Positions 1 through 17,012 of a DNA stretch of 17,012 nucleotides are shown piece by piece (the stretch's first letter is position 1; every line of letters begins with the position of its first letter). A program made the position numbers and the translations under genes. The notes beneath the pieces are model-generated. The model saw nothing but the letters and a program-made list of their open reading frames with translations, had not been told where the DNA came from and did no database searches. The stretch is from NCBI GenBank assembly GCA_052390515.1, contig JBQTGV010000074.1, forward strand, positions 1 through 17,012, written 5' to 3'. The stretch comes from Candidatus Eiseniibacteriota bacterium (lineage in GTDB: Bacteria > ARS69).

Positions 1-1
1 G

Positions 2-139
2 GCGCTGGAGGAGACCGACTCCTCCGGTCGGGTCACCGTGCACGATCCGGCGCTGGGCCGGGTGGAGTTCTCGTCGGGCGCGGTGCGGCGGCTGTGGAGT
101 GGAGACGTGCTGGAGTTCATCGAGGAGGGAGCACCGTGA
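2..139 (+). CDS. C-terminal fragment of a C39-family (papain-like, double-glycine leader-processing type) peptidase; 5' end outside window
   Basis: Not in ORF track. Manual frame-2 translation ALEETDSSGRVTVHDPALGRVEFSSGAVRRLWSGDVLEFIEEGAP* (TGA 137-139). The V-x-x-DPA-x-G ... W-S-G-x-V-L pattern is typical of the C39 domain end. Catalytic Cys/His would lie upstream of the window. Confidence 0.65.
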   Translation, partial: ALEETDSSGRVTVHDPALGRVEFSSGAVRRLWSGDVLEFIEEGAP

Positions 140-402
140 AGGGAGAGAATCGGAACGAAGGTGGCGGTCGGCGTGGGCCCTGCGAGCGTCGTGCGGCTCC
201 ACGTCGGCTCAGTGTGGGAATCGGGATCGCGCTCGTGCTGGTGGCTGTCCTCCCCTCGGACTCGGCACCTGATGCCGCGGTTCCCGTCGGGGGTCTGTCG
301 CCGCTCTGCAAGGTAGGGCTCGCGCTTCTGGCCACGGCGGTCACCCAAGTACCGGGGATGATCGGCGGCGCCCTGGATCTGATCGGGGAGCACTGCTTCT
401 GA
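136..402 (+). CDS. Small 88-aa hydrophobic protein; possible double-glycine peptide precursor
   Basis: GTG at 136 overlaps the upstream TGA (GTGA) and follows GAGGAGG. Basic N-terminus, hydrophobic segment LSVGIGIALVLVAVL, then VPVGG followed by LSPLCKVGLALLATAVTQVPGMIGGALDLIGEHCF. Confidence 0.6.
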   Translation: MKGENRNEGGGRRGPCERRAAPRRLSVGIGIALVLVAVLPSDSAPDAAVPVGGLSPLCKVGLALLATAVTQVPGMIGGALDLIGEHCF

Positions 403-416
403 CGGCAACCGTCTCG

Positions 417-445
417 TTGGAGCTTTCGCTCTGAAGTGCTACGAT
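417..445 (+). promoter_or_regulatory. Putative sigma70 promoter
   Basis: TTGGAG (417-422), 17-nt spacer ending in TGc, TACGAT (440-445); lies upstream of the ORF at 498. Confidence 0.45.
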
Positions 446-497
446 CCCGGAACGGCGGTTCGCGCCAGCGTGCGCGCCGCCGCCCCGAGGTCCGCTC

Positions 498-1289
498 ATG
501 ACCTGCACTCTCGACGATCCGCCTCCGGGGGGCCGTGCCCTGGGAGAGACTCACGGGGGAGCGCGGAACCTCCCGAGGTTCCTCTGCTCGTTGCTCGGAC
601 CGGGGCCGGTTCTCGTGGTCGGCTCCTCGCAGGTGGCCCTGGAAGCCGCAGCCACGCGAGAGGTCGTCGTCGTCGATCCCGACCATCGGCGTCTGAGCGA
701 CGTCCAGGATCGCGTTTCCCGGCACGGGGGCCACCTTCGCGCCATCTGCAAGGACCTGGAGCGGCAGGATCTCGGCGTGGCGCCTCGGAGCATGGCGAAT
801 GTCGTCTGCGTCGACGTGCTGGAGCGCACCCGCGACGACATCGCGGTCCTGGAGCGACTTCATCGGGTGCTCGCACCGGAGGGTCGTCTCGTGACGCGCG
901 TCCGGGCGCGGCGCACCTCAGACACGTCGAGGCTCTACGACCCGGAGACGCTGCGCAGCTCGCTGGAGGTCGCCGGCTTCCGCACGCAGACGGTTCGCTA
1001 CTGGAACTTCCTCGGGGTTCCGTGGGCCTGGGCGACGGCTCGACGTCGGGATCTCGCTGACGGGGCCGGTGAGGCCGCCGTCGGTCTCCCCTCGCACTGG
1101 TGGGACCAGGCGCTGGACTGGTGGTTCGAGGCGGTGGAGAACCGGGTCGGTTTCCCCACCGGCGTGAGCCTCATCTCCGTCGCCACGCCGCACGTGGAGA
1201 AGGTGCGCGTACGCCGCGAGTCCCTGTCCAAGGCGCTGGGTCAACGCGGAACCCGCGAGGCCTACGAGCCCATGGCGGCGTCGCGCTGA
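498..1289 (+). CDS. Class I SAM-dependent methyltransferase-fold protein with degenerate motifs
   Basis: VVCVDVLERTRDDIAVLERLHRVLAPEGRLV and RLYDPETLRSSLEVAGF...RYWNFLGVP resemble Methyltransf_11/23-type proteins. Motif I reads VLVVGSSQ. GAGG precedes the ATG. Confidence 0.7.
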   Translation: MTCTLDDPPPGGRALGETHGGARNLPRFLCSLLGPGPVLVVGSSQVALEAAATREVVVVDPDHRRLSDVQDRVSRHGGHLRAICKDLERQDLGVAPRSMANVVCVDVLERTRDDIAVLERLHRVLAPEGRLVTRVRARRTSDTSRLYDPETLRSSLEVAGFRTQTVRYWNFLGVPWAWATARRRDLADGAGEAAVGLPSHWWDQALDWWFEAVENRVGFPTGVSLISVATPHVEKVRVRRESLSKALGQRGTREAYEPMAASR

Positions 1290-1365
1290 GGCACGGGTTA
1301 ATTTCGGTCCGCTGACGTCCTAGCTTGGTCGTGGCTCTCCCCCGGGCTCGTAGCTGGAGGCTGCC

Positions 1366-1854
1366 ATGAACCGTCTCCGCGTCGCCTCGCTCGCTGCCTT
1401 TCTGACCGCTGCGTCCTTTCACCCGGTGTCGGCCCTCGAGAAGCGGGCCATGCTCATGCCGGAACACGTGGGAGAAGAATGGGGTGCTGCCGCCACGGTG
1501 ACGCTGGCGTACTACAACATCTGCACCGGTTGGATCTGGGCGTACAGTGGCTGGGCCGAAGGCGAACAGGTAGGCGTGTACTTCGAGCCCGACTGTTCGC
1601 TCCCCGCCCTGATCCGCGCGTCATCCGTGCTGACGTTCGACGGACCCTGGTCCGGCTACGGGTACACGGGCACGATCGCGATCGTGTCGGCGGACGATTG
1701 CTCGGGGCAGATCATCGCCTCACAGCCCTGGGTGGGAGGCGACGGATGGAACGACCACACCTGGAATGTGGAGGTCTCGGCCAGCGTTCAGCTGGCGTGT
1801 GTGACCGGTGTCGAGGCCACGAGCTGGGGTAGGGTGAAGGGCATCTACGAGTAG
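1366..1854 (+). CDS. Secreted Trp/Tyr/Gly-rich hypothetical protein with C-terminal SWGxxK motif
   Basis: GGAGG RBS (1356-1360); Sec-type signal MNRLRVASLAAFLTAASFHPVSA; 4 Cys; ends TGVEATSWGRVKGIYE. Confidence 0.8.
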   Translation: MNRLRVASLAAFLTAASFHPVSALEKRAMLMPEHVGEEWGAAATVTLAYYNICTGWIWAYSGWAEGEQVGVYFEPDCSLPALIRASSVLTFDGPWSGYGYTGTIAIVSADDCSGQIIASQPWVGGDGWNDHTWNVEVSASVQLACVTGVEATSWGRVKGIYE

Positions 1855-1895
1855 CTGTCCGATCCGGCCACGAAGGACCAGCGGCGCGGCCTTCG

Positions 1896-4800
1896 CTATC
1901 GCCCACGGAGCTTTCGCCGTCGCGCCTCCAGTTCCTCCGCCCCGGGATGAAGCTCGAGCCCGGCGGTCAGCACCGAGTCGGCACGCGCCTTCTCCCCGAG
2001 TCGATCGAGCGCATCGGCCAACGCTGCGTGTGCGTCGAGGTGACGGGGGCGAAGCTCGAGCGCGCGCATCGCCGCATCCCGCGCTTCCTCGATTCGGCGC
2101 ACCCCGACCAGCGCCCCTGCGCGGAGCGCGTGCAGGTCGGCCGAGTCGGGGTGGAGCGCCAGCCCTTCCTCGGTGATCGCGAGCGCGGTGGTGAGCTGCC
2201 CCGAGTCCCGGTAGAGCCGGCCCAGATCGAGGTACGTCTCCGCCAACTGCCCCACTTGCAGAGCGCGTACCCAGCTACGCGCGGCACCCGCGGTGTCGCC
2301 GCGCCGGGCGAGTGCCGCCCCCCGCTCGTTCAGCGAACCCGCCAGCGTTCGGCGGATGGAGGGTGCAGGCATCAACCGGTACGCATCCTCGAGCGCGCGG
2401 AGCGCCGGCTCCCCCTCGCCAGCCCGGAGCGCCAATCGCCCCGCGGACTCGAACGAGCGAGCGCGCCGCCACTCGCCCAGGGCCAGCGCGACCTCGGCCG
2501 GTGCCGTAGCCGGAATCGGAGCCGCCGTCGCGGCTCGGTGCAGGCCTTCGAACAACTCGCCCATGGAGTCGGCATAGAGGAGCTTGGGCGCTTCGAACTC
2601 GAGCGTAGGCCGGTCGTCGGTGTTCGCCGCGGAACCGCCGATCCAGGAGTCGAGCGACGTGCCGGAGAGCAACAGGAGAGACAGCAGGCTCGGTGCGTCC
2701 GGCGCGTCGGCAGTCTGCATGACCGGCGCAACGCCCGGCAGTCTCTGCCGCTCGACGAGGGCGCTCACGTCGAGCTCGAACGACTCGTCCCCGGCGACGA
2801 TCAGCAGGTCGCCCCACGCGCCGCGCCACACCTGCACGGCGGGGAAGGTGCCCCGGACCGCGGCGACCACGCTGCGCAGGGCTTCCGTCGAGAGCGAGTA
2901 GCCCTGGATCCAGGAGCAGAGGATCCCTCCCGGGCGAAGTCGTTCACGCGCCTCGGCGTAGAACTCCGCCGACATGAGCGAGCCGATTCCCGAGTTCCAC
3001 ACGTGCGACGGCAGCGACACGACCACGTCGTACTCACGCCGGGAGAGCCTCACGTGGCTTCGTCCGTCGCCGACCAGGAGGCGCACGCGGGGGTCCTCGA
3101 GCACGCGACCGTTGGCTTCGCCGAACCAGGCCCGTGCGGCCCGCACGACCTCCGGGGAGATCTCCACCACGTCGATGCTCTCGACTCCGGGGAAACGCGC
3201 GGCGGTGGCCGCGGTGATGCCGCCGCCGAGGCCGATGACCAGCACGTCGCGGGCGTGGCCGTGCAGCAGGAGCGGCAGCCCGGCGACCGAGACCTGCGTG
3301 GAAAGGTCGCCCGCGGTGCTCGCCTCGGTGACGCCGTTCAGCTGCATCGTGTACGACTCGTCCTCCCGTCGCACGGTGACGGTGGAAGTGAGGCCCTCCT
3401 CGAGGAACACGATCTCGGCGTTCTCCGGCGCCAGCGCTTCGCCTCCGGCCCGCCGGAGGTCGGCGCCGAGGACGAAGGCTCCGCGAGGCATCACCGATCG
3501 ATTCCACTCCGGCATCCGCGCGGCGTTGGCCGTCGCCGCGACGGCGAGCGTCAGGGCCGACGCAACGACGAAGACGCGCCCGGGTCCGCGCCAGACGGTG
3601 ACGATCGCCAGGGACGCGAGGACCGGCAGCGCCGCCACGAGCGTCACTCCGCTCTGCAGACCGGCCGCGGGCAGGATGACGAAGCCCGCCGCCCAGGAGC
3701 CGAGGATCGCGCCGAGCGTGTTCGCCGCGTAGACGTCGCCGGTGGCGCGGTGCCCCGCGGCGCGGCGGTCCAGGGCGACGGCGAGCGGCAGCGCGGCCCC
3801 GGAAACGAACGTCGGCGGCAGCAGCGGGATTCCCGCCAGGAGGAACTGCACGAGTACGCTCTCTCCCCACGTGCCTCCGCCTCGGGCGGCCAGCGTGACG
3901 AACAGCGCGGGGAGGCGGTCGAAGAGCGGCAGCAGCGCGAGCGAGAACGCGCCGATGAGAACTGGACACAGGGCGAAGGCCCTCGCCGCGCTCGGTCCGC
4001 CGCCGGCGAGGCGGCGTGCAGTCAGGCTCCCCGCGGCGATGCCGAGGAGGAACACGGCGAGCACGACGGCGAACGCGTAGATCGTCGTGCCGAGGGAGAG
4101 CGCGAGCGCCCGCGTCCACAGCACCTCGAAGGCGAGCGCGGCGAACCCGAGGACTCCCGCGGCGAGATAGAGGAGGGGGCGCGGGAACGGAAGTGCGGCG
4201 ACGGGCGCCGCGGCCTCGGGCGATGCCGCTGCAGGAGTGTCGGCGTCGGGGGACGCCCCTGTGGGCGAAGCCGCCGCGGGCAGGTCGGCGTCGCGAGACG
4301 CCACTGCGGAGATGTCTCCCGCGGCGGGAGACTTGCGCCCGAGCGCGATGGCCGCGATGCCCAGCGTCACGTTCAGCGCGACACCCGCGGCCAGAGTCGC
4401 CGTCAGCCCGGCGGACGGCAGCAGACCGAACGTCGCCGCGAGGGTTCCCCCCGCCGCTCCCAGCGTGTTGATTCCGTAGAGGTCGGCGACGCGGCGGCGC
4501 TCCGCGCTCCCGGCTTCCGCGTGGCGGACGAGAACCGGGAGCGTCGCGCCCATCAGAAAAGTGGGCGGGAGCAGGATCATCGCGCTGACCGCGAAGCGGA
4601 CGGCGTCGAGCGCGGGCCCGGACTCGCCGAGCGCGGGATAGAGCGCCGCGTAGAGGGGCTCCGCCCCGCGCAGCAGGAGCGGAACGAGCACCGCAGCCGC
4701 AGCCAGCAGGAGCTCCAGCCGCCCGTACACCTCCAGCGGCCTCGCCCAGCGGTGCGCGTTCCGTCCGGCCCACCATCCGCCGAGCGCCAAGCCTCCCATG

Positions 4801-4949
4801 AACGCGGTCAGCACGGTCGAGACGGCCGGCACAGTCGCGCCGAAGAGCAGCTGGAAGAGTCGGATCCAGACGATCTGGTAGAGCAGCCCCGCCGCCCCCG
4901 ACAGGAAGAACAGGGCGAGGACCGCGGAGAACGAGGGGGATCGGTTCAG
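1896..4949 (-). CDS. Fused multi-TM (MFS-like) / spermidine-synthase-like SAM-binding domain / TPR protein, about 1017 aa
   Basis: N-terminal LFFLSGAAGLLYQIVWIR and internal repeat GFAALAFEVLWTR; paired PTFLMGATLP/PTFVSGAALP and LYGINTLG/VYAANTLG; Rossmann loop VLVIGLGGG, DVVEISPEVV, GDGR, NTDDRPTLEF; C-terminal TPR-like helices. The track start at 5417 lies within nrfA; CTG at 4949 is the inferred start. Confidence 0.85.
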   Translation of the reverse strand: MNRSPSFSAVLALFFLSGAAGLLYQIVWIRLFQLLFGATVPAVSTVLTAFMGGLALGGWWAGRNAHRWARPLEVYGRLELLLAAAAVLVPLLLRGAEPLYAALYPALGESGPALDAVRFAVSAMILLPPTFLMGATLPVLVRHAEAGSAERRRVADLYGINTLGAAGGTLAATFGLLPSAGLTATLAAGVALNVTLGIAAIALGRKSPAAGDISAVASRDADLPAAASPTGASPDADTPAAASPEAAAPVAALPFPRPLLYLAAGVLGFAALAFEVLWTRALALSLGTTIYAFAVVLAVFLLGIAAGSLTARRLAGGGPSAARAFALCPVLIGAFSLALLPLFDRLPALFVTLAARGGGTWGESVLVQFLLAGIPLLPPTFVSGAALPLAVALDRRAAGHRATGDVYAANTLGAILGSWAAGFVILPAAGLQSGVTLVAALPVLASLAIVTVWRGPGRVFVVASALTLAVAATANAARMPEWNRSVMPRGAFVLGADLRRAGGEALAPENAEIVFLEEGLTSTVTVRREDESYTMQLNGVTEASTAGDLSTQVSVAGLPLLLHGHARDVLVIGLGGGITAATAARFPGVESIDVVEISPEVVRAARAWFGEANGRVLEDPRVRLLVGDGRSHVRLSRREYDVVVSLPSHVWNSGIGSLMSAEFYAEARERLRPGGILCSWIQGYSLSTEALRSVVAAVRGTFPAVQVWRGAWGDLLIVAGDESFELDVSALVERQRLPGVAPVMQTADAPDAPSLLSLLLLSGTSLDSWIGGSAANTDDRPTLEFEAPKLLYADSMGELFEGLHRAATAAPIPATAPAEVALALGEWRRARSFESAGRLALRAGEGEPALRALEDAYRLMPAPSIRRTLAGSLNERGAALARRGDTAGAARSWVRALQVGQLAETYLDLGRLYRDSGQLTTALAITEEGLALHPDSADLHALRAGALVGVRRIEEARDAAMRALELRPRHLDAHAALADALDRLGEKARADSVLTAGLELHPGAEELEARRRKLRGR
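4218..4292. repeat. Imperfect 30-bp direct repeat (period 45 bp) in a Pro/Ala linker
   Basis: 4218-4247 and 4263-4292 encode DADTPAAASP and DADLPAAASP on the minus strand, between the two TM halves. Confidence 0.7.
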
Positions 4950-6346
4950 TTGCCTGCTCGCGGCGCGTCGAGCCGCGCCACCGCGACCTGACCCAGCCGG
5001 GAGTAGTCCACGCTGCGACCGGCGAGCCGCACGGCCTCCTGGTCGGCGTGGAATCCCATCGAGTTCTCCGCCTCGATGTAGTCGAGCAGGAACTGCGCCT
5101 TGCGCTGGTAGTCGCGGGCGCCGGCGAGCTGCTCGTCGGTGGCACCGCCGTCGCGCGCCGCCTTGATGTCGCCGATCAGCGCGACGAGCGCGTCCATGGC
5201 CACGTTGCGCATCTCGTGCGTGCGGCTCTGGATCGTCTCCGCGCGGCCGCGCAGCTCGTCCTCGCTCGCCTTGTGGCACGTCTGGCAAGCGTTCGCCACG
5301 TTGAGCAGCGGCGAGCGCACGTGGTGGTCGCTGATCTTGAGGGCTCCGACGCGCTGATAGGGCATGTGGCAGTCCGCACAGGCCACGCCGTTGCGAGCGT
5401 GGATGCCCTGGTTCCACATCTCGAACTCCGGATGCTGCGCCTTCAGCACGGGCGCGCCGGTCTCCGCGTGAACCCAGTCCTTGAACCCGGCCTCGTCGTA
5501 GTAGGCCAGAGCGTCATCGGCGCGGAGTCCCTTCGCCCAGGGGTAGACGAGCCGCTTCTCCGGCCCTTGGAAGTAGTACTCCACGTGGCACTGGCCACAA
5601 ACGTACGCTCGCATCTCCTGGCGCGAAGCATCTCGGTTGACGTCGTAGCCCTCGATCCCCTCGGACGACTTGAACGCGCGCATGCCCTCGATGAAGGCCG
5701 GCCGCGTCACGCGCAGCGCCATGGTGGCCGGGTCGTGGCAATCGATGCACGCGACGGGGTGCTCCACCAGCGGACGCGCTTCGGAGTACGCCATTCGGTT
5801 GATCGCCTCGAATCCGCGGGTCATATCGCCGTCTCCGGCCGTGCGGTAGGCCTGCACCATCGAAGCGTGGCAGTTGAGGCACGTGCCCGGCTGCTTCACG
5901 ACCGCCTGCCGCTCGGTGAAGGTCTGGTCCTGGAGCATGAACGCGTGGCCGCGCTCCTCGCGGAAGTCGACCGAGAACGCGTAACCCGCCCAGATCGTGC
6001 GCAGCCTCGGATCCTCCTCGAGCCTCGATTGCGCGACGATCGACCGCGGATCCGCCGCGGTGGGCGTGCGCTGCACCGCCTCGGAGCCTCCGAAGCGCGT
6101 CCGTTGCTGGTCCACGGTGCGGACGTAGCCGTCGTACTGCAGCGGGAAATTCTTGCCCCACACCGCGGGGTCGGACGTCTCCTCGGTGACTTCCACCACG
6201 CGGAAGAACGGGTCGTGGGCCTCGTGCTTGCGCTCCGCGATGTTCACCAGCAGCGCGGTCACGCCCGCGGCGCCGGCCGCCGCAGCGATCGCGACGAGGA
6301 TCGCGGTGCGAAGGAACGAACGGGACTCGGGGGGAGGTGGGGTCAT
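4946..6346 (-). CDS. nrfA: Pentaheme cytochrome c552 nitrite reductase (ammonia-forming), CXXCH heme-1 type
   Basis: ATG at 6346 overlaps the nrfH stop (ATGA) with GGAG upstream. N-terminal TM anchor; hemes CLNCH, CIDCH, CGQCH, CADCH, CQTCH; diagnostic LKAQHPEFE, CHVEYYF, WAGYAFSVDFREERGH, AENSMGFHA. Confidence 0.95.
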   Translation of the reverse strand: MTPPPPESRSFLRTAILVAIAAAAGAAGVTALLVNIAERKHEAHDPFFRVVEVTEETSDPAVWGKNFPLQYDGYVRTVDQQRTRFGGSEAVQRTPTAADPRSIVAQSRLEEDPRLRTIWAGYAFSVDFREERGHAFMLQDQTFTERQAVVKQPGTCLNCHASMVQAYRTAGDGDMTRGFEAINRMAYSEARPLVEHPVACIDCHDPATMALRVTRPAFIEGMRAFKSSEGIEGYDVNRDASRQEMRAYVCGQCHVEYYFQGPEKRLVYPWAKGLRADDALAYYDEAGFKDWVHAETGAPVLKAQHPEFEMWNQGIHARNGVACADCHMPYQRVGALKISDHHVRSPLLNVANACQTCHKASEDELRGRAETIQSRTHEMRNVAMDALVALIGDIKAARDGGATDEQLAGARDYQRKAQFLLDYIEAENSMGFHADQEAVRLAGRSVDYSRLGQVAVARLDAPRAGN

Positions 6347-6849
6347 CGTGGATCTCCATCGTGAGGGAGGGGCGCGCTCCCGACACTGACGAACTCGGGG
6401 TGGCCCTCCCCGGAGTGACAGCGGAGGCAGGATATCGCTTCGCCCGCCCGGTGGGGACCGTCCAGCTGGGCCACGAGGTCCTCGTGGCAATGGCGACAGG
6501 CGCCTTCGGTGACGCGCCGGTTGCGCTCGGTGATCCGGATCGTCTGAGGGAAGTCTCCGGTCGTGAAGGCGTACGAGTGGAAGAAGCCGTTGACGGCCTT
6601 CGTCCAGTACTTCCCGGCGAGGTCGTGGGGCGCGTGGCAGTCGTTGCACACCGCCACGTGGCGATGGCTCGACTTCACCCAGCCATCGAACTGTGCCTGC
6701 ATGACGTGGCAGTTCGCGCAGGCGTCGGGGTCGTTCGTCAGGTAGGACGCTCCGCGGGCGTAGACGAAGGTGAAGCCCCCGACCCCGACGGCCACGCCCA
6801 GGACGCACCCGACGACGACGGCGGCCAGCGAGATTCGGCTCATCGGCAT
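6343..6849 (-). CDS. nrfH: Tetraheme NapC/NirT-family quinol dehydrogenase, small subunit of nitrite reductase
   Basis: N-terminal TM helix, ASYLTNDPDACANCHVM, CNDCH, CRHCH, CLRCH; adjacent to nrfA. Alternative ATG at 6843. Confidence 0.95.
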   Translation of the reverse strand: MPMSRISLAAVVVGCVLGVAVGVGGFTFVYARGASYLTNDPDACANCHVMQAQFDGWVKSSHRHVAVCNDCHAPHDLAGKYWTKAVNGFFHSYAFTTGDFPQTIRITERNRRVTEGACRHCHEDLVAQLDGPHRAGEAISCLRCHSGEGHPEFVSVGSAPLPHDGDPR

Positions 6850-6863
6850 TCGCCCCGCGTGCG

Positions 6864-7256
6864 TCAGCTCCGGAGGAAGCGCTCCTTCACCCGTCGCCGG
6901 GCCAGCCAGCGGCGGCGCGCCTCGGCGAACTCGCCGCCCAGTCCTTCCTCGCGGAGTTCGTTCACGCGTCGTTCCGCGGCTGCGACGTCCACGTCGGCCA
7001 CCGGGGACGCGGTATCGGTCAGCACGGTGACGCGGTTCTCGGCGACCTGCAGGAAGCCGCCCTCGATGTAGAAGGAGTGCGTCTGTCCGTCCGTCGTGAC
7101 GCGCAACTCGCCGTTGCCGAGCTTGGCGAGGAGACGGGCGTGGCCGGGCAGGACGCCGACCTCCCCGTCGTGGACGGGAACCGTCACACGAGCCGCAGGA
7201 GCGTCGAAGATCGACTTCTCCGGGGTGACCACCGTGACGTTCAGCGTCTCCGCCAT
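6864..7256 (-). CDS. atpC: ATP synthase F1 epsilon subunit
   Basis: VTVVTPEK, GEVGVLPGHA, IEGGFLQVAENRVTVL; position after atpD. Confidence 0.96.
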   Translation of the reverse strand: MAETLNVTVVTPEKSIFDAPAARVTVPVHDGEVGVLPGHARLLAKLGNGELRVTTDGQTHSFYIEGGFLQVAENRVTVLTDTASPVADVDVAAAERRVNELREEGLGGEFAEARRRWLARRRVKERFLRS

Positions 7257-7284
7257 CGCCCGTCCTCTCCCGCCCGGCGGGACG

Positions 7285-8718
<1,434 letters not shown>

Positions 8719-9615
8719 CTATTTCAGCGCTTCGACTCCGCCCATGAGCTCGGAGATCTCGTTGGTGATCTGGGTCTGGCGAGCCCGGTTGTACATCCGC
8801 GTCAGACGCTTGATCAGCTTGTCCGACGCGTCGGTGGCGTTCTTCATCGCGACCATCCGCGCGAGGTGTTCACCGACGACGGCCTGCAGGAAATCGGCGA
8901 AGAGCGTCGTCTTGAAGTAGGCCGGCAGCAACTCCCGCATCAGGGACTCCGGCTCCGGCGAGAAGAGGTAGTTCACCGTCTTCGGTCTGACCGGAGCGGA
9001 TGCACCGCCGACCGGTTTCGCCGCGCCTGCCGAGATCGTCGCCAGCGGCAGGAGCACCTCCGCGACGGGAGCCTGGCGCCCGGCGGAGTAGAACTTCTGG
9101 AACACGACGGTGAAGCGGTCGATCTCCGCTTTCGAGTACCGCTCGATGTACGTTTCCGCCAGCGCGTTGATCTCGGCGTAGCCGGCCTTGTCGCCGAAGT
9201 GGTCGTGCGCACGCGCGATCGGCTGCTTGCGGTGCCGGAAGTACACGATGCCCTTCTTGCCGATGATCTCCAGCTCGACGGCGGCGCCGGCCTCGCGTTC
9301 CTTCTCGACCAGCCGCCGCGCCAGGACGTTGAGGTTCGAGTTGTAACCGCCGCAGAGACCCCGGCTGGAGGTGACGAGCAGCACCAGCGAGCGCTTCACC
9401 GGTCTGGACACGAGCAGCGGATGGGTGATGTCCGCCGACACCGTCGCGAGGTCCGCCATCATCTCGCGGAGCTTCCTCTGGTACGGCGCCGAGCTCGCGA
9501 TGCGACCGTGCGACTGCTTGTACTTCGCCGTCGACACCATCTCCATGGTGCGGGTGATCTTCTTGGTGTTGCGCACGCTCTTGCGGCGCTTGAGCAGTAC
9601 CTTGGCCTTGGCCAT
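8719..9615 (-). CDS. atpG: ATP synthase F1 gamma subunit
   Basis: KITRTMEMVS, RGLCGGYN, EHLARMVAMKNATD, YNRARQTQITNEISE. Confidence 0.98.
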   Translation of the reverse strand: MAKAKVLLKRRKSVRNTKKITRTMEMVSTAKYKQSHGRIASSAPYQRKLREMMADLATVSADITHPLLVSRPVKRSLVLLVTSSRGLCGGYNSNLNVLARRLVEKEREAGAAVELEIIGKKGIVYFRHRKQPIARAHDHFGDKAGYAEINALAETYIERYSKAEIDRFTVVFQKFYSAGRQAPVAEVLLPLATISAGAAKPVGGASAPVRPKTVNYLFSPEPESLMRELLPAYFKTTLFADFLQAVVGEHLARMVAMKNATDASDKLIKRLTRMYNRARQTQITNEISELMGGVEALK

Positions 9616-9636
9616 CGCTCTCGCTCTCCGTCCCCG

Positions 9637-11149
<1,513 letters not shown>

Positions 11150-11166
<17 letters not shown>

Positions 11167-11710
11167 AGCCTCCACTCCTCATGATCTGCTTGCGGAACCG
11201 ATTGAGCCGGTTCCGGATGCTCCCGTCGTACACCTTGTCGCCGATCCCGACCACGGCTCCGCCCAGGAGGGCCGGCTCCACCTCGGAATCGATCACGATC
11301 TCCTTCTGCAGCAACCCGCGGAGCATGAGCTCGAGCTCCCCGCGAAGATCCGCGGAGAGCGGCCGTGCGGTGCGCACCGAGATTCGCGCGCGCGCGGCGT
11401 GCTCGTCCGCCATCGCCTGGTACGCCTCCGCGATCCAGCGAAGCTGACCGGCCCGCCGTTTCGCGACGAGCAGGCTCAGGAAGTCGGCCATCACCGTGGA
11501 GGCCCGTCCGTCGAGCGCCTTGCGCAGGTGCGCCACCTTCACCGCGGGCTCGAGCACCGGCGTCGCCAGGAAGCGCTCGAGGTCGGACGTCGAGCGGACC
11601 AGATCCGTGAACTCGCGAAGCTCGGCTCCCAGCGCCTCCACTTCACCTCGGTCCCGCGCGATCCCGAACAGGGCCTCCGCGTAGACGCGCGCCACGGGGC
11701 TCGCCAGCAT
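11150..11710 (-). CDS. atpH: ATP synthase delta subunit
   Basis: [35 protein letters not shown] at 11710 overlaps the atpF stop (TGATG). Confidence 0.95.
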
Positions 11711-12378
11711 CAAGCCTTGCCCGCCGGCGTCTTGTCGTCACGCATCTCCTGGATCAGCTCGCGGACGAGCCGCTCCTGGTCCTTCTGATCGAGCGCGCGG
11801 CCCAGGATGCGCGTGGCCAGCTCCGTGGACAGGCCGGCGGCCTGCTCCCACAGCTCGTGCACCGCGCCGTCCTTGGCCAGTTCGATCTCGCGCCGTGCCC
11901 GCTCCTTGAAGTGCTCCGCCTCTTCGTGCGCCTTGCGGCGGATCTCCTCCTGTACGGCGAGCCCGTCGCGGCGAGCTTCGTCCAAGATGCTGCGCGCCTC
12001 GTCCTTCGCCTTGTCCATCATCGTCTGGTGGCGGGCGAGGAGCTGCTGCGCCTCGGACTTGATGCGGTCCGCCTCTTGGATGGCGCCGGAGATCCGCTGC
12101 TCCCGCTCCGCCAGGGCCCTCATCAGCGGGCCCCAGGCGGTGATGCGGAGCACGACCAGCACCACCAGGAACGTGATGATGGTCCAGATGAGCAGTCCTG
12201 GCTCGACGCTGAACAGGCTCGGGGCGGCATGGGCGGCCTCCGTGGCGTGCGTCGCCGCCGCCTCCTCGGCGTGCGGGTCGGCGGCCCAGACCGCTGCCGG
12301 CGCGAGGCTTGCCCCGCCGGCGAGACGCACCGCCGCCGCGGAGATTCCCCCGAGCGCCCGGCTCGTCGCTCTGATCAC
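11710..12378 (-). CDS. atpF: ATP synthase Fo subunit b with N-terminal extension
   Basis: PGLLIWTIITFLVVLVVLRITAWGPL...REQRI, followed by coiled coil; GTG start with AAGGGG upstream. Confidence 0.93.
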   Translation of the reverse strand: MIRATSRALGGISAAAVRLAGGASLAPAAVWAADPHAEEAAATHATEAAHAAPSLFSVEPGLLIWTIITFLVVLVVLRITAWGPLMRALAEREQRISGAIQEADRIKSEAQQLLARHQTMMDKAKDEARSILDEARRDGLAVQEEIRRKAHEEAEHFKERARREIELAKDGAVHELWEQAAGLSTELATRILGRALDQKDQERLVRELIQEMRDDKTPAGKA

Positions 12379-12406
12379 GGGCTTCCCCTTTCCGGCGCCT
12401 GAGCCG

Positions 12407-12664
<258 letters not shown>

Positions 12665-12674
12665 TCAGTGACAC

Positions 12675-13457
12675 CTAGTGCTCGGGATGAGCAGCCATCC
12701 CGATGAACACTGCGGTGAGGAACGTGAAAACGTACGCCTGGAGCAGCGCGACGAAGAGCTCGAGAAAGTAGATCGCCGTGGCGGCTGCGATGGACACGCC
12801 GATCACGGGCCCCTGGATGAAGATCGCCGCGTTCTTCACCATGAAGATGAAGCCGAGCAACACCAGGATGATGATGTGCCCGCCGTTCATGTTCGCCCAG
12901 AGACGGACGGCGAGTGCGAACGGCTTGGTGAAGATGCCCACCATCTCCACGACGAACAGGATCGGCCACAGCCACAGCGGGACGGGCGGAACGATCGACC
13001 GGACGTAGTGCACCAGCCCGTTCTCGCGGATCCCCACGAAGTGGATGGCGAAGAAACTGATCACCGCGAGTCCCGCCGTGACGGAGAGGTTCGCGGTGGC
13101 GGTGGCGCTGCCGGGCACGAGACCGAGCAGGTTGCAGAACAGGATGAAGAAGAAGAGCGTCCACAGGTAGGGCAGGTAGCGGTCCGCCTTGTCGTGGAAG
13201 TTGGGGACGGCGAGCTCGTCCTTGATGAAGAGCAGGATCGGCTCGACGAAGTTGCGGAAGCCGCGGGGAACCGGCCCCCTCTGGCGCGCGGCCACGTTCA
13301 TCAGGACGATGAGCAGGGCCGAAGCGATCCACATGAGCCAGACGTGCTTGGTGATCCCCAAGCGGGAGAGATCCATCCCGAAGAACGTCGGGCTGTCCAG
13401 CAGGTGATGGAGGATGTCGATCTTGCTCGGGTCGCTGGCTGCGGACAGTAGGATCAC
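12675..13457 (-). CDS. atpB: ATP synthase Fo subunit a
   Basis: NLLGLVP, ATATANLSVT, KPFALAVRLWANM with the essential Arg, ELFVALLQAYVF; GTGA overlap with atpI. Confidence 0.97.
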   Translation of the reverse strand: MILLSAASDPSKIDILHHLLDSPTFFGMDLSRLGITKHVWLMWIASALLIVLMNVAARQRGPVPRGFRNFVEPILLFIKDELAVPNFHDKADRYLPYLWTLFFFILFCNLLGLVPGSATATANLSVTAGLAVISFFAIHFVGIRENGLVHYVRSIVPPVPLWLWPILFVVEMVGIFTKPFALAVRLWANMNGGHIIILVLLGFIFMVKNAAIFIQGPVIGVSIAAATAIYFLELFVALLQAYVFTFLTAVFIGMAAHPEH

Positions 13458-13813
13458 CGCGCGGCCTCCCCCATCTCGCGCCGGGCGAGGATCCAGGCCT
13501 CGGCCATGACCAGCGCGAAGTAGAACGTGACCACCCAGAGCACGAAACGTGCGGGGTCGAGCCCCGTCAGGGCGACCAGCCCGATGACCGCGGCGACGAG
13601 GAGCACGAGGCGAATCACGAACCCGCCGACCACGAGCTTCACCGCGTAACGGTCCGGGCCGCGCAGCGCCAAGCGAACACAGCCGTACCCGCCCAGCACG
13701 GTCAGCAGCGAGAGCCCGGCTCCGATGGACATCATGGCGACCGCGTCACGGCCGCCGAGCAGTGTCGTCGGGATCCCGGTCAGGAGGCCGAGGGCGAGGG
13801 TGATCAGGATCAT
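13454..13813 (-). CDS. atpI: ATP synthase protein I-like 4-TM membrane protein
   Basis: Four hydrophobic segments, GGFVIRLVLL, directly upstream of atpB. Start uncertain (ATG 13813 or 13735). Confidence 0.75.
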   Translation of the reverse strand: MILITLALGLLTGIPTTLLGGRDAVAMMSIGAGLSLLTVLGGYGCVRLALRGPDRYAVKLVVGGFVIRLVLLVAAVIGLVALTGLDPARFVLWVVTFYFALVMAEAWILARREMGEAAR

Positions 13814-14045
13814 CGTGATCGGAATCCGGTCGGCCGCTTCGTTGCGTTTCGCGGTAGAGAACATAGAAGCCGATGCTCGCTCCGAGAAAGGTCCCGACCA
13901 GCGTGAGGGTCCCGGCGGTGGAGAGTCGGCGATCGAGCCAGCTTCCACCCAGGATGCCAAGAACCACAATCAGGGCGAACTGAACGCCAACGTGTGCGAA
14001 GCGGACGTACCGGTCGAGGTCCGACGGTCCCTTGCGGCGAACCAT
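13746..14045 (-). CDS. atpZ: AtpZ/AtpI-family 2-TM protein (first gene of the atp operon)
   Basis: GVQFALIVVLGILGGSWLDRRL...LVGTFLGASIGFYVLYR matches the G-x-W-L-D signature; GGAG RBS. Confidence 0.85.
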   Translation of the reverse strand: MVRRKGPSDLDRYVRFAHVGVQFALIVVLGILGGSWLDRRLSTAGTLTLVGTFLGASIGFYVLYRETQRSGRPDSDHDDPDHPRPRPPDRDPDDTARRP

Positions 14046-14213
14046 CCAGATCTCCGCATCCCGGACCCGAGAGGAGGCCGTGCCGGAACGGCAGTGCCTG
14101 CTCCCGAAGTTCCTGGGATTTCAGCCACTTCCCCGCATCCGCACAGTCGGCCGGTCACAGTAGGGGCGGCGCCGGCGGGATGCAAGCGTTTTCCTTCACA
14201 AGCCGTTCGCGCC

Positions 14214-14241
14214 AAGGTATCAGGGGCGGGCGGTCGGTCAA
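14214..14241 (-). promoter_or_regulatory. Putative sigma70 promoter of the atp(-nrf) operon
   Basis: Minus strand TTGACC (14241-14236), 16-nt spacer ending in TGa, TACCTT (14219-14214). Confidence 0.45.
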
Positions 14242-14298
14242 GCACCAGGAGAGAGGGGCCGATGACAAGAAAGTGCTCGAATTCCGTCCGGGGACGTG

Positions 14299-14307
14299 TG
14301 CTATACT
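14299..14307 (+). promoter_or_regulatory. Putative extended -10 promoter
   Basis: TGcTATACT, an AT-rich near-consensus element in GC-rich DNA; no good -35. Confidence 0.35.
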
Positions 14308-14486
14308 GCGGGCGTCCTGGTATCGGTACGGGGCTCCCCCCGGGCCGTCTCCCCGGTCGGATCGGCCAACCCCATGATGGGGAAGAAGATGGGGGAGGCT
14401 GTTCGTCGGCTGGTTCGGGTTCGTGTGTGGGGTGGGGTCGAAGTGCCAAGCCCGCAGAAAAAGTGGGCCTGAGAGCTTCCGGGCGG

Positions 14487-14515
14487 TTGAAATCGGTTCC
14501 CGATCCTGCTAGAGT
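14487..14515 (+). promoter_or_regulatory. Putative sigma70 promoter for the 14587 gene
   Basis: TTGAAA (14487-14492), 17-nt spacer ending in TGc, TAGAGT (14510-14515); GGAGG RBS at 14573-14577. Confidence 0.6.
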
Positions 14516-14586
14516 AATCAGGCGCTCGGGCGGGTACACGTGTCCGTCCACCTGCGCTCGTCAATCCGATTCGGAGGAAACAATCC

Positions 14587-15132
14587 ATGAAGCGTTTCAT
14601 GACGATTCTTGTTCTGGCGATGCTCGTGATGGCTCCGGCTGCCATGGCCGCCAACCGCTACGGCTGGACCGTCAGCAGCAGCGCGGTCGACCCGTTCGTC
14701 AACACCGGCCTGCCCACGGGCGGCATCGTCTCGCTGTTCCTGTGGCTGCAGTGCGCTCCGGATGGCGGCGCGGCGGCTGCGGAGTTCGACATGCAGGGTC
14801 CTGCCGGCGCCGTGCTCGCCTTTACGGCGATGAACGGCTTCCTGAACGCGGGCGGCGCGCTCAATCTGCTGCTCGCGACTCCATGCAATGCGGGTCCGGT
14901 GGTTGCCGGTAACTGGCTCTGCCTGAGCCTCCCTGGTGACTTCTGCCTGCGTCCGTCGGCTGCGAACGCCAAGAACGTGTCGGTGGACTGCGTGCTCTTC
15001 GGCGAGCACACGAACAACACGGTCGGCTTCGGCAACAGTGGCGCGCCGGCCCTTTGCGTCGAGCAGATCTGCCCTCCGATCGTCTCGGTCGAGGAGAGCA
15101 GCTGGGGCGAGATCAAGGGCCTGTATCGCTAA
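14587..15132 (+). CDS. Secreted Cys-rich hypothetical protein with C-terminal SWGxxK motif (paralog A)
   Basis: Signal peptide MKRFMTILVLAMLVMAPAAMA; 7 Cys; ends VSVEESSWGEIKGLYR; strong GC3 codon bias, promoter, RBS and terminator. Confidence 0.9.
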   Translation: MKRFMTILVLAMLVMAPAAMAANRYGWTVSSSAVDPFVNTGLPTGGIVSLFLWLQCAPDGGAAAAEFDMQGPAGAVLAFTAMNGFLNAGGALNLLLATPCNAGPVVAGNWLCLSLPGDFCLRPSAANAKNVSVDCVLFGEHTNNTVGFGNSGAPALCVEQICPPIVSVEESSWGEIKGLYR

Positions 15133-15158
15133 CCGCGATTCGAGCCTGAAGGTTTGAC

Positions 15159-15197
15159 GAAGGGCCTCTCCTCGGAGAGGCCCTTCTGCTTTGTGTT
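15159..15197 (+). terminator. Rho-independent terminator
   Basis: Perfect 12-bp stem GAAGGGCCTCTC / GAGAGGCCCTTC with CTCG loop, followed by TGCTTTGTGTT. Confidence 0.75.
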
Positions 15198-15290
15198 CGC
15201 CTTCCACGGATGAGTAGACTCGCCTCCGTCGCTGCCGGAGGAGAGGAGGGGCCGGGCGAAGAGCGGACGGCGCGATCGGGGAGGTGTCCC

Positions 15291-15824
15291 TTGAAGCAAC
15301 TGCTTACCATCCTGGCTCTCGTGACTCTCGTGATGACGCCCCCCGCGGAGGCGGCGCGTTACATCTGGACCATCAGCAGCCTCGCCACCAATCCGTTGAT
15401 GAACGTCGGCGAGCCGACTGGCGGGATCATGACCCTGTACCTGTGGCTGTGGTGCGCGTTGGACGGGGGTGCGTCGGCGGCGGAATTCGACATCGCCGGC
15501 CCGGCGGGTTCCGTTCTCGCCTTCACGCCGATCAATGGCTTCCTGAACGCGGGCGGTACGACGAACCTGCTGCTCGCCACTCCGTGCAACGCCGGGCCGG
15601 TGGTTGCCGGAAGCTGGTTGTGCCTGAGCCTTCCGGGGGAGTTCTGCCTGGTTCCGTCTGTGAACGGCAAGAACGTCTCGGTGGACTGCATCGTGTTCGC
15701 CGAGCATCCCAACCAACAGACGGGTTTCGCGAACGGAGTGTCGCCCACCTGTGTGAGCATCTGCGATTGGTCCGACACGGAGTCGGCCAGCTGGGGCCGG
15801 GTGAAGTCGCTGTTTCGCAGGTAG
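15291..15824 (+). CDS. Secreted Cys-rich hypothetical protein with C-terminal SWGxxK motif (paralog B)
   Basis: TTG at 15291 after GGGAGGT; signal MKQLLTILALVTLVMTPPAEA; collinear with paralog A with all 7 Cys conserved; ends DTESASWGRVKSLFRR. Confidence 0.88.
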   Translation: MKQLLTILALVTLVMTPPAEAARYIWTISSLATNPLMNVGEPTGGIMTLYLWLWCALDGGASAAEFDIAGPAGSVLAFTPINGFLNAGGTTNLLLATPCNAGPVVAGSWLCLSLPGEFCLVPSVNGKNVSVDCIVFAEHPNQQTGFANGVSPTCVSICDWSDTESASWGRVKSLFRR

Positions 15825-15866
15825 GTCCGGCGGTGCTCAGTGCATCCCGCCAGGCGGGTTGGGCGC

Positions 15867-16493
15867 TCAGTACGTGCCGGGCATGACCGCGCGGAGGGCA
15901 TGAACCAGCAGCCGCTCGGCCTTCTCGAGCTGCCGGCGGTGGAAGGGCTCCGCGGAGGAGCCCCACAGGAAGACGAAGGTCGCCGGCACGGGGTCGACCG
16001 GCTTGCCGCGAGCGTTTCTCTGAGAGAGGACCTCGATGAACTCCTCGACCGCCCAGGTGTCGGGCCGGGTCGTGTCGAGCTCGGTCCAGATCTCGCGGAA
16101 GCCGAACAGCAGCTCCTGGATGTCGTGCATGGCTGCGCCGTCCCGGAGGATGCTCTTCACCATTCGCTCCGCCTCCGGCAGCGCCTCGAACTCCGCGATG
16201 GGCGGCCGCTTGGGCGCCCGACCCCGCTTCTGGAACGCCTTGGGGAGAAGGCCGAGACAGGTCTCCAGGCCCGCCTGCCCGAGCCAGCGGAACGCGCCGC
16301 GGATCGGGCCGCCGTCGTATCCCTGCACCCAGGCGGCCGCGTACTCGTCCGGGCCGGCACCCGGAGCCGGGGGAACCCAGGGCGGATCCACCTTCCCGTA
16401 TCTGGAAAGCTGATAGAGCTCCCTCGGGAGCGGTTGCTCGAGGAACGCTCCGACGAGCTCGGTCGGTGTCCTGTAGGTCGACCTCGTGGGCAC
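15867..16493 (-). CDS. Hypothetical cytoplasmic protein, about 208 aa
   Basis: Protein-like composition from PTRSTYRTP to VMPGTY. GTG at 16493 has GGAGG upstream; alternative ATG at 16580. The track's extension to 16919 is antisense to thiC. Confidence 0.65.
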   Translation of the reverse strand: MPTRSTYRTPTELVGAFLEQPLPRELYQLSRYGKVDPPWVPPAPGAGPDEYAAAWVQGYDGGPIRGAFRWLGQAGLETCLGLLPKAFQKRGRAPKRPPIAEFEALPEAERMVKSILRDGAAMHDIQELLFGFREIWTELDTTRPDTWAVEEFIEVLSQRNARGKPVDPVPATFVFLWGSSAEPFHRRQLEKAERLLVHALRAVMPGTY

Positions 16494-16689
16494 GATCCGC
16501 CATCCTCCCTGGAGCGCGGGTGGAGTCCCGGAGGGGGGGAACCGGTTCCGGAACACCGCCGGCACGACCGGAGGACGCATCGTGGGGGTCGTGCTCCGAA
16601 GATCCCACGCGGAGAGGCCGGCGGCAAGGCGAAGATGCGCCTCCGCGGGGTGACGCGGCGGGCCGGATGCTCGCGCGGCCGGCGCCCGC

Positions 16690-16718
16690 TGGACCGACCG
16701 GTCCCGTTCGCCTAGATT
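16690..16718 (+). promoter_or_regulatory. Putative thiC promoter
   Basis: TGGACC (16690-16695), 17-nt spacer, TAGATT (16713-16718). Confidence 0.35.
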
Positions 16719-16760
16719 GCGGCCAGCCGGGCGCTTGCAAGCGCCCCCCGGAGGGCGGTC

Positions 16761-17012
16761 ATGGCGACGACGGAGCGGGGCGTCGAGCAGGTCGGGGTTC
16801 CGATCGGCCGCGACCGGGGTCCGGGCTATGGCGACCTGGACGACATGCGGCCGGAGCAGCCGCTGCGCCGGGAGTGGGTGGCGCGCCGCCGGCCCGACGC
16901 CGTCCGCACGCAGATTCACTACGCCCGGCGCGGCGACCTCACGCCGGAGATGTGGGTTGTCGCGGAGCGGGAGGGTCTCGAGCCCGCCTGCATCCGCGAC
17001 GAGGTGGCGCGC
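16761..17012 (+). CDS. thiC: Phosphomethylpyrimidine synthase, N-terminal part (runs off window)
   Basis: Not in ORF track. Manual translation MATTERG...PLRREWVARRRPDAVRTQIHYARRGDLTPEMWVVAEREGLEPACIRDEVAR matches the ThiC N-terminal TQxHYARxGxxTPEM...EVARG; GGAGGG RBS at 16750-16755. Confidence 0.85.
   Translation, partial: MATTERGVEQVGVPIGRDRGPGYGDLDDMRPEQPLRREWVARRRPDAVRTQIHYARRGDLTPEMWVVAEREGLEPACIRDEVAR

Follow-up and report, generated by a model that had tools for sequence, protein, structure and literature searches.

A short C-terminal tag on unrelated exported proteins of mostly uncultured bacteria that is exchanged for known sorting signals

Why should exported proteins with unlike bodies, encoded in one stretch of bacterial DNA, end in nearly the same few residues? 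The question is raised by a contig of a Candidatus Eiseniibacteriota bacterium (JBQTGV010000074.1, assembly GCA_052390515.1), of which we analysed positions 1 to 17,012 (hereafter the window, meaning this whole stretch of 17,012 bases). An earlier note, made from the letters alone, had pointed to three open reading frames (ORFs), each with an N-terminal signal peptide and a near-identical C-terminal tail, and had proposed that the tail is a portable module read by a sorting or anchoring system. We find that the tail is a genuine, widespread and so far unnamed C-terminal tag: it exists, stands at the C-terminus, is portable, co-occurs with signal peptides, swaps with two known sorting signals and is present in the taxa named below. 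Judging from sequence comparisons, we think it moderately likely that it serves as a sorting or docking tag that is read in trans and acts after Sec. The proteins and tails of the window are the following.

1366..1854, plus strand: P0001, a 162-residue exported protein of a family without a name, carrying the tail (from the translation; G+C content at third codon positions (GC3), 0.83)
1810..1851, plus strand: tail 1, VEATSWGRVKGIYE (stop codon at 1852-1854)
14587..15132, plus strand: P0002, a 181-residue exported Cys-rich protein, carrying the tail (from the translation)
15088..15129, plus strand: tail 2, VEESSWGEIKGLYR (stop codon at 15130-15132)
15291..15824, plus strand (TTG start likely; longest ORF from ATG 15210): P0003, a paralogue of P0002, carrying the tail
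15777..15821, plus strand: tail 3, TESASWGRVKSLFRR (stop codon at 15822-15824)

The translations end exactly as had been read (P0001 in TGVEATSWGRVKGIYE, P0002 in VSVEESSWGEIKGLYR and P0003 in SDTESASWGRVKSLFRR, each directly before its stop), and all three ORFs, with GC3 values of 0.81-0.83, follow the pattern [VT]E-x-x-S-W-G-x-[VI]-K-x-[LI]-[YF], then one or two residues and the stop. The expression WG.[IVLM][KR]..[YFW] matches exactly three sites in the six frames of the window, every one of them 1-2 residues from a stop, and the codon-level pattern of the tail has three matches in the window and none in 200 dinucleotide-preserving shuffles. At the DNA level the tails have only the motif codons in common, so they do not form a DNA repeat. 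Similarity between P0001 and P0002 is confined to the 17-residue tail (8 of 17 identical), in agreement with the claim that the body of P0001 is unlike the other two; however, as P0002 and P0003 are paralogues (65% identity), the window holds two passenger families and not three. For P0003 the probable start is TTG 15291, which follows a GGAGG-like site, and not ATG 15210, because with the later start alone its N-terminus lines up with its relatives' signal peptide; the first 27 residues read from ATG 15210 are probably untranslated, given that both the signal peptide and the alignment begin at TTG 15291. P0002 is preceded by a promoter-like site (14487-14515) and followed by a terminator-like hairpin (15159-15186).

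Database homologues of all three proteins retain the tail. The close relatives of P0002 (P0004-P0007, 68-93% identity) all end in SSWGEIKGLYR, and a word-index search with the P0002 tail returned only four full-length homologues and no unrelated carriers. The homologues of P0001 (P0008-P0010, 41-61% identity) are about 240 residues long and keep the tail, just before which they have a Cys- and Pro-rich segment of about 80 residues that is absent from P0001. By this comparison of sequences P0001 is a natural deletion variant of the family of about 240 residues, with signal peptide and tail retained; as it lacks about 80 residues yet ends in the tail, remodelling of the body leaves the tail in place. 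No Pfam or NCBIfam model matches P0001, P0002 or P0003 even at E <= 10, with one weak exception, a zinc-knuckle match in P0003 that is meaningless and falls in the probably untranslated N-terminal extension.

Beyond the window, genomes (one per species) were scanned with a codon pattern for E-x-x-[ST..]-W-G-x-[IVM]-K-x-(xTx)-[YF], which yielded at least 132 loci with at least 135 distinct in-frame tail instances; the counts given here for these loci, their ORFs and their neighbourhoods are among the matches listed. The final aromatic residue is followed directly by the stop in 5 of the 135 instances, by one residue in 100, by two in 22, by 3-5 in 3 and by 6, 6, 9, 10 and 12 in the other 5, so that 127 of 135 tails lie within 2 residues of the stop and 135 of 135 within 12, and the C-terminal placement seen in the window holds at large. 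By our own arithmetic, a random open frame meets a stop within two codons at most about 13% of the time. A looser regular expression run over the six frames of the 132 loci gave 179 hits (overlapping loci counted separately), none more than 12 residues from a stop. Where the pattern leaves positions free (numbered from the W as 0), P occurs at -6 in 64 of 132 tails, V or T at -5 in 91, S or T at -1 in 131, R at +8 in 84 and the stop at +9 in 102. Read from these sequences, the consensus is P-[VT]-E-x-[ST]-[ST]-[W/F/M]-G-x-[IV]-K-x-[LM]-[YF]-R-COOH. The Cys that had been described upstream of the tail is there in all three window proteins, but elsewhere a Cys lies within 15 residues upstream of the Glu in 73 of 132 tails and so is not general.

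All scan loci come from metagenome-assembled genomes (MAGs), among them the complete chromosomes CP070727.1, CP070763.1, CP070677.1, OZ244210.1, OY970173.1 and OZ252149.1. By a hand count of titles, at least 28 belong to Candidatus Eisenbacteria, at least 15 to Krumholzibacteriota or Krumholzibacteriia, at least 9 to Fibrobacter or Fibrobacteraceae, at least 6 to Latescibacterota, at least 5 to Gemmatimonadota, at least 2 to Fermentibacteria and at least 1 each to Aegiribacteria, Zixiibacteriota and "Verrucomicrobia", with at least 64 from an unnamed "bacterium"; these titles bear out the remark in the earlier note that WGxIK tails occur in candidate-phylum proteomes. All named taxa but one fall in the FCB (Fibrobacteres-Chlorobi-Bacteroidetes) group, and the only named hit outside it is on contig QNAI01000304.1 (L117), from a MAG labelled Verrucomicrobia, a label that may reflect a binning or labelling error or else a wider range of the tag. 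In the ESM Atlas only unnamed clusters were found (Krumholzibacteriota, Eisenbacteria and Coatesbacteria), and the neighbours of P0002 there are mostly Krumholzibacteriota. Tandem arrays of paralogues are frequent among the tail genes (for example, P0002 and P0003 in the window); on contig JAPEKQ010000030.1 (L031-L034), at least five consecutive small paralogous genes all carry the tail PVExxxWGGIKALYR.

The passengers are diverse and are, as a rule, exported. From the longer loci came 89 ORFs with the tail, taken as segments between stops of 120 residues or more, and they fall into 52 BLASTP clusters, 33 of them singletons. A Pfam family was matched at E <= 0.001 in 16 of the 65 complete tail ORFs, the other 49 being without a family, and the domains include PD40/TolB-like propellers, Laminin_G_3, DUF4440, Beta_helix/NosD (six proteins), Cleaved_Adhesin, Cytochrome_C7, X25 with CBM20, and LTD, together with weak ThuA and Cohesin hits. 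Above the NCBIfam cut-offs, choice-of-anchor J (40.2 bits) and choice-of-anchor E (140.1 bits) are also found among the tail ORFs. A crude signal-peptide heuristic picked out 70 of the 80 tail ORFs whose N-termini are complete; at the same loci it picked out 53 of 162 other likely genes, and among non-coding frames 10 of 381. The proposal of a portable module on unrelated Sec-exported passengers is thus supported well beyond the window, as is its co-occurrence with signal peptides. The tail itself matches no characterised domain: no Pfam best-scoring stretch extends into it in the 65 complete tail ORFs, and no NCBIfam model covers it in these or in the three window proteins.

Which slot the tail occupies is indicated by what replaces it. 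The largest family encoded beside tail genes comprises 20 ORFs at 15 loci, of which 16 have an ending of the type A C-terminal domain (CTD) that directs proteins to the system for type IX secretion (T9SS), and these 20 are linked to each other only via their C-terminal ~85 residues; among 10 such neighbours tested, TIGR04183 scored above its cut-off in 9, and PF13860 matched all 10 at E <= 5e-6, 8 of them above its gathering score. At one locus (L012) a single kind of passenger is encoded twice, by adjacent tandem genes (67% identity over 177 residues); the product of one ends in DDPSPIEQSSWGKVKSLFR, whereas that of the other runs on from QPVES into a T9SS-type CTD. A search with this passenger, which resembles carbohydrate-binding modules (CBMs), found 96 homologues, with the following endings.

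24 proteins: tail, W form
26 proteins: tail, variant form (W replaced by F, M or I, and in some cases G by S or T)
18 proteins: PF13860 (T9SS-type CTD)
21 proteins: hydrophobic stretch plus basic cluster (22 including P0100, judged by eye)
6 proteins: fragments or other

Of the proteins with a hydrophobic stretch and basic cluster, NCBI names one PEP-CTERM, and PF07589 is present in two; both NCBI-named tail forms of the family are called "hypothetical protein". None of the 18 CTD forms and none of the 21 forms with a transmembrane stretch and basic cluster contains the tail motif, and no homologue has two endings, so that the three are mutually exclusive in this family. A tree built from the passenger only (86 of the 96 rows; omitted were 7 classed as other and 3 CTD forms missed by the junction expression) implies at least five switches among the three classes, with PEP-CTERM-like forms nested inside the tail clade. 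The suggestion that the tail occupies the slot of known sorting signals is upheld in that it alternates, on one passenger family, with both T9SS type A CTDs and PEP-CTERM-like anchors. The W that had been taken as a fixed residue proved not to be one, as F, M or I stands in its place in 26 of the 50 tails of this family (P0037-P0086); the broader motif is [ST]-hydrophobic-[GST]-x-I-K-x-L-[YF]-R, and searches based on W consequently undercount the tag. Where no residue was imposed, 35 of these 50 tails have Glu at -4, all 50 have S or T at -1, 39 have Gly at +1 and 49 have Lys at +4, the remaining one having Arg instead.

Given this exchange, the tail could be a minimal or non-canonical T9SS signal, a second route into or onto the T9SS that the same genomes would use for CTD-bearing cargo (one way would be the binding of a PorV-like shuttle or of a surface protein anchored by the T9SS). 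The tail resembles the type A CTD (TIGR04183/PF18962, PF13860) in being a C-terminal module of Sec-exported, often surface-type passengers; tail genes lie in the same genomes as genes for CTD proteins and often beside them, the two endings are exchanged even between tandem paralogues of one passenger, the carriers belong, with the one exception above, to the FCB group, and hydrophobic residues followed by a basic residue close both. However, the CTD is an immunoglobulin-like β-sandwich of 70-90 residues, and the tail, at about 15 residues and predicted to be a linker with a short helix, has no such sandwich. T9SS models match none of 68 tail proteins (0 of 3 from the window and 0 of 65 complete tail ORFs), a negative that is informative because the same searches detect the CTD-bearing neighbours. 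In the accessible parts of two sources, the folded β-sandwich of the CTD is the export signal and is essential (PMC4804311, PMC11285876). No T9SS core gene turned up at the loci, where no search was aimed at core genes, and the same passenger also takes PEP-CTERM-like endings, so swapping alone is no proof of a common machine. Overall, we regard a T9SS route of this kind as rather unlikely.

The tail is also akin to PEP-CTERM, LPXTG, GlyGly-CTERM, MYXO-CTERM and IPTL-CTERM, which are likewise short, portable C-terminal signals on diverse exported proteins; PEP-CTERM-like endings alternate with it on one passenger family, and it is found on "choice-of-anchor" domains. Such tripartite signals, as the available portions of two reports describe them, are built of a motif with a transmembrane helix and a basic cluster, and are processed by sortase-like enzymes embedded in the membrane (10.1101/2023.06.07.544157, PMC11980579). 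The tail differs in having no hydrophobic span and only one or two residues after the aromatic, and neither PF07589 nor the NCBIfam CTERM models hit any window protein or complete tail ORF. Nor does it end like the β-signal of outer-membrane proteins, as the aromatic is last in only 5 of 135 instances and Arg usually follows; that signal is borne by β-barrels, whereas tail passengers are soluble (CBM, β-helix, propeller, cytochrome). Dockerins are Ca-binding duplicated modules of about 60-70 residues, and no dockerin model matches the tail proteins with their tails of about 15. The "basic terminal domain" of Fibrobacter is, in the available part of its description, a different and larger module (PMC3079729), and it is by description only that we set it apart. 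The tail therefore falls outside the T9SS CTD, PEP-CTERM/tripartite, dockerin and β-signal families. With known sorting signals it shares unrelated passengers, the extreme C-terminal position, an N-terminal signal peptide on the same protein and interchangeability with other signals on homologous passengers ("choice of anchor"), and it works most like a "choice-of-anchor" alternative to them.

No paper describing the tail was found in the literature searched, which left most subscription journals and supplements outside its scope. None of the terms sought is present in the Haft myxosortase preprint, and the one match to the motif string, a densovirus paper, is irrelevant. Weak leads from the ESM Atlas (Cohesin, 16% of members; IPTL-CTERM clusters, 0.81-0.86; and DUF7451) were set aside, as Pfam confirmed none of them. 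In a separate observation, a cohesin-domain protein with a T9SS CTD (L054:2-1297) is encoded directly upstream of a tail protein with a weak cohesin match (L054:1401-2051); this pair and the Atlas cluster near P0002 form an anecdotal lead towards a cohesin-like passenger or scaffold.

How might so short a segment be recognized? AlphaFold2, run on a 63-sequence alignment of the CBM-like passenger, gave a jelly-roll with a mean predicted local distance difference test score (pLDDT) of 89.2, whose best matches in the PDB are CBM16, CBM4, CBM22 and CBM61 (best E = 2e-8). After the fold comes a coil linker and then a separate predicted helix at residues 205-212 (SWGKVKSL). Hydrophobic residues stand at 0, +3, +6 and +7, positions +2 and +5 are polar or variable, and K and R flank the segment; this spacing favours a helix over a strand. 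A profile search of the PDB with 122 tails gave no hits at E <= 10. Three known arrangements were considered and dropped: helix packing of the small-xxx-small type (+5 is small in the scan set and not in the CBM-like family), donor-strand exchange (the hydrophobic spacing suits a helix better) and Lys linkage of the Braun-lipoprotein type (the Lys does not stand at the very end and is replaced by Arg in one tail).

A free amphipathic helix of this kind might need no receptor at all and might simply stick to a membrane leaflet or to lipopolysaccharide. In MinD (cytoplasmic, where it is the membrane-targeting sequence) and PBP5 (periplasmic), C-terminal amphipathic helices of about 10 residues with flanking basic residues target membranes while being only weakly conserved in sequence. 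The tail shares with these its brevity, the aromatic and aliphatic residues at 0, +3, +6 and +7 between Lys and Arg, and the predicted free helix on a linker; the absence of machinery from the neighbourhoods of the listed loci would suit such a helix, and tandem or internal copies (see below) would add avidity. To our knowledge, however, generic membrane-binding helices drift freely in sequence, whereas the tail has strongly conserved specific positions that go beyond amphipathicity, on passengers from many phylum-level lineages, and a fixed spacing, with one residue (usually Arg) between the aromatic and the C-terminus. We see quite a small chance that membrane binding alone accounts for the tail. 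That E(-4), S/T(-1), G(+1) and K(+4) are so well kept, and with them the distance from the C-terminus, speaks rather for a protein reader.

A sorting or docking tag is the best reading of these data because the tail stands at the extreme C-terminus of unrelated, Sec-exported, surface-type passengers, because it is interchangeable and mutually exclusive with two recognized sorting signals, and because it is attached through a linker instead of being built into a fold. We envision that the passenger is exported by the Sec or the lipoprotein pathway through its N-terminal signal peptide and that the tag then acts in the cell envelope, where it may take the passenger to the outer membrane or cell surface or hold it there, a role that would equal that of the T9SS CTD or the PEP-CTERM anchor on homologous passengers. 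In this view a short amphipathic helix would probably be made up of the last ~10 residues, one face carrying W/F, I/V, L and Y/F and the flanks K and R, and a flexible Pro-rich linker would present it to a protein receptor. A working model by analogy is the secretin S-domain, a short disordered C-terminal peptide that becomes an amphipathic helix on its pilotin and is taken to the outer membrane, although this domain is restricted to secretins and is not known to resemble the tail in sequence, and our analysis turned up no pilotin-like partner. That the tail is read in trans, that it is helical and that the surface is its destination are points that we only infer. It is possible, although we consider it doubtful, that the tail is the address label of a new pathway for outer-membrane translocation or surface attachment that is independent of the T9SS, recognizes a C-terminal helix of 10-15 residues and is common to Eisenbacteria, Krumholzibacteriota, Latescibacterota, Fermentibacterota, Zixibacteria, Fibrobacterota and Gemmatimonadota.

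Several observations weigh against a sorting or docking tag or narrow what can be built on it. The earlier note had spoken of a sorting "system", and of this only the tag is left: no reader or processing enzyme is encoded in the neighbourhoods of the listed tail loci, and the only recurring neighbour family without the tail, the T9SS-CTD proteins, is cargo and not machinery. Some tail carriers have lipoboxes, that is, they are lipoproteins and already lipid-anchored. The amphipathic helix that had been proposed is weakly supported by the AlphaFold2 helix at 205-212, but this was predicted at a pLDDT of only ~55, and the tail is unstructured in the model of P0002 (6 sequences; pLDDT 47.6, too poor for a fold search). 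All sequences derive from MAGs or metagenomes, the scan fixed Glu as GAG and Lys as AAG and is thus biased to GC-rich genomes, and it only sampled the taxonomic range and abundance of the tail.

The tail is also not purely terminal, unlike classical sorting signals, which do not occur as internal copies. A 30-position profile of the three window tails, compared with 1.84 billion representative proteins, found 16 at E <= 0.001, P0001 itself among them. In all 15 others the motif lies within 4 residues of the C-terminus, but 11 of the 15 also have internal copies (12 in total), each of which closes an NTF2-like/DUF4440-like repeat unit of a lipoprotein. This lipoprotein family (P0011-P0024) has one to three repeat units, each with its own copy of the tail, and in P0011 two tails stand in tandem, 12 residues apart; as HMMER sums the scores of copies, a list of this kind favours multi-copy proteins. 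The internal copies could reflect multivalent docking, cleavage into units or a use that is independent of a free C-terminus. One protein of the profile list, P0015, is probably a chimeric assembly or a gene-call artefact: in it, stretches that look like an AMP-binding enzyme and a sodium:dicarboxylate symporter are fused to the C-terminal portion of a protein similar to P0001.

The repeat lipoproteins bear on two other explanations. In one, the tail is a site of processing, covalent attachment or turnover: a peptidase or transpeptidase of the periplasm or surface (sortase- or PorU-like) might cut it near P-V-E, it might be linked through its Lys, or a tail-specific protease might target it. 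Copies at the ends of repeats fit the cutting of multi-domain precursors into units, immediately upstream of the tail there is a conserved P-[VT]-E, which is still seen where passenger and CTD meet in the L012 paralogue, and the Lys is nearly invariant (49 of 50). The Braun lipoprotein, however, is attached through a terminal Lys, whereas the terminal residue of the tail is Arg; the single tail with Arg for Lys argues against obligatory Lys chemistry, and no peptidase or transpeptidase gene is associated with the tail in the neighbourhoods of the listed loci. Processing strikes us as very unlikely to be the explanation, although it overlaps with a sorting or docking role and does not fully exclude it. 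In the other, the tail is a structural element of its passengers (a capping helix or strand, or an oligomerization peptide) with no part in sorting. The conservation of the internal copies after each NTF2-like unit, while the units themselves are only 40-66% identical, would fit such an element; but the tail is found on unrelated folds (β-propeller, β-helix, jelly-roll CBM, multihaem cytochrome and NTF2-like), a linker separates it from the fold in the confident CBM-like model, and a CTD or PEP-CTERM-like ending replaces it in homologues while the passenger stays unchanged. A purely structural role therefore appears highly improbable. Returning to the sorting or docking tag, it is the internal copies in repeat lipoproteins and the machinery that was not found that hold our confidence at a moderate level.

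The three tail ORFs of the window are located between housekeeping genes, and no candidate machinery is among these neighbours (the ATP synthase operon, NrfA and the spermidine-synthase-like protein), which likewise counts against the proposed tag. The surroundings are as follows.

1 to 17,012: the window, 17,012 bases, ~65-74% G+C, chromosomal by appearance
498-1289, plus strand: methyltransferase
within 1896-5417, minus strand: fused MFS/spermidine-synthase-like protein with TPR repeats
within 4946-6808, minus strand: NrfA-type cytochrome c552
6864-13457, minus strand: F-type ATP synthase operon (epsilon, beta, gamma, alpha, delta, b, c, a)

On the minus strand, the spermidine-synthase-like/TPR protein and the NrfA-like protein have longest ORFs (1896-5417 and 4946-6808) that share ~470 bases in different frames. 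As family matches to the former begin only near residue 404, its start is probably well downstream of 5417, and in the latter ~200 residues precede the cytochrome c552 match. Directly upstream of atpB, a 171-residue ORF (13454-13969, minus strand) has a weak match to the ATP-synthase-associated Cg1360 family (E = 2.7e-4; 20.9 bits, below the cut-off of 40 bits).

Hardly any members of the carrier phyla are in culture, and "hypothetical" is the annotation of many proteins that they export. A 15-residue tag on dozens of families would group many of these as co-sorted, among them CBM-like binders, β-helix proteins, cytochromes and choice-of-anchor domains, and would give phylogenetic profiling a concrete starting point in the search for the machinery. 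Should it suffice for targeting, the tag would be unusually small for use in surface display. The switching of one passenger among a T9SS CTD, a PEP-CTERM-like anchor and the tail, moreover, bears on how surface proteomes evolve in diderm bacteria.

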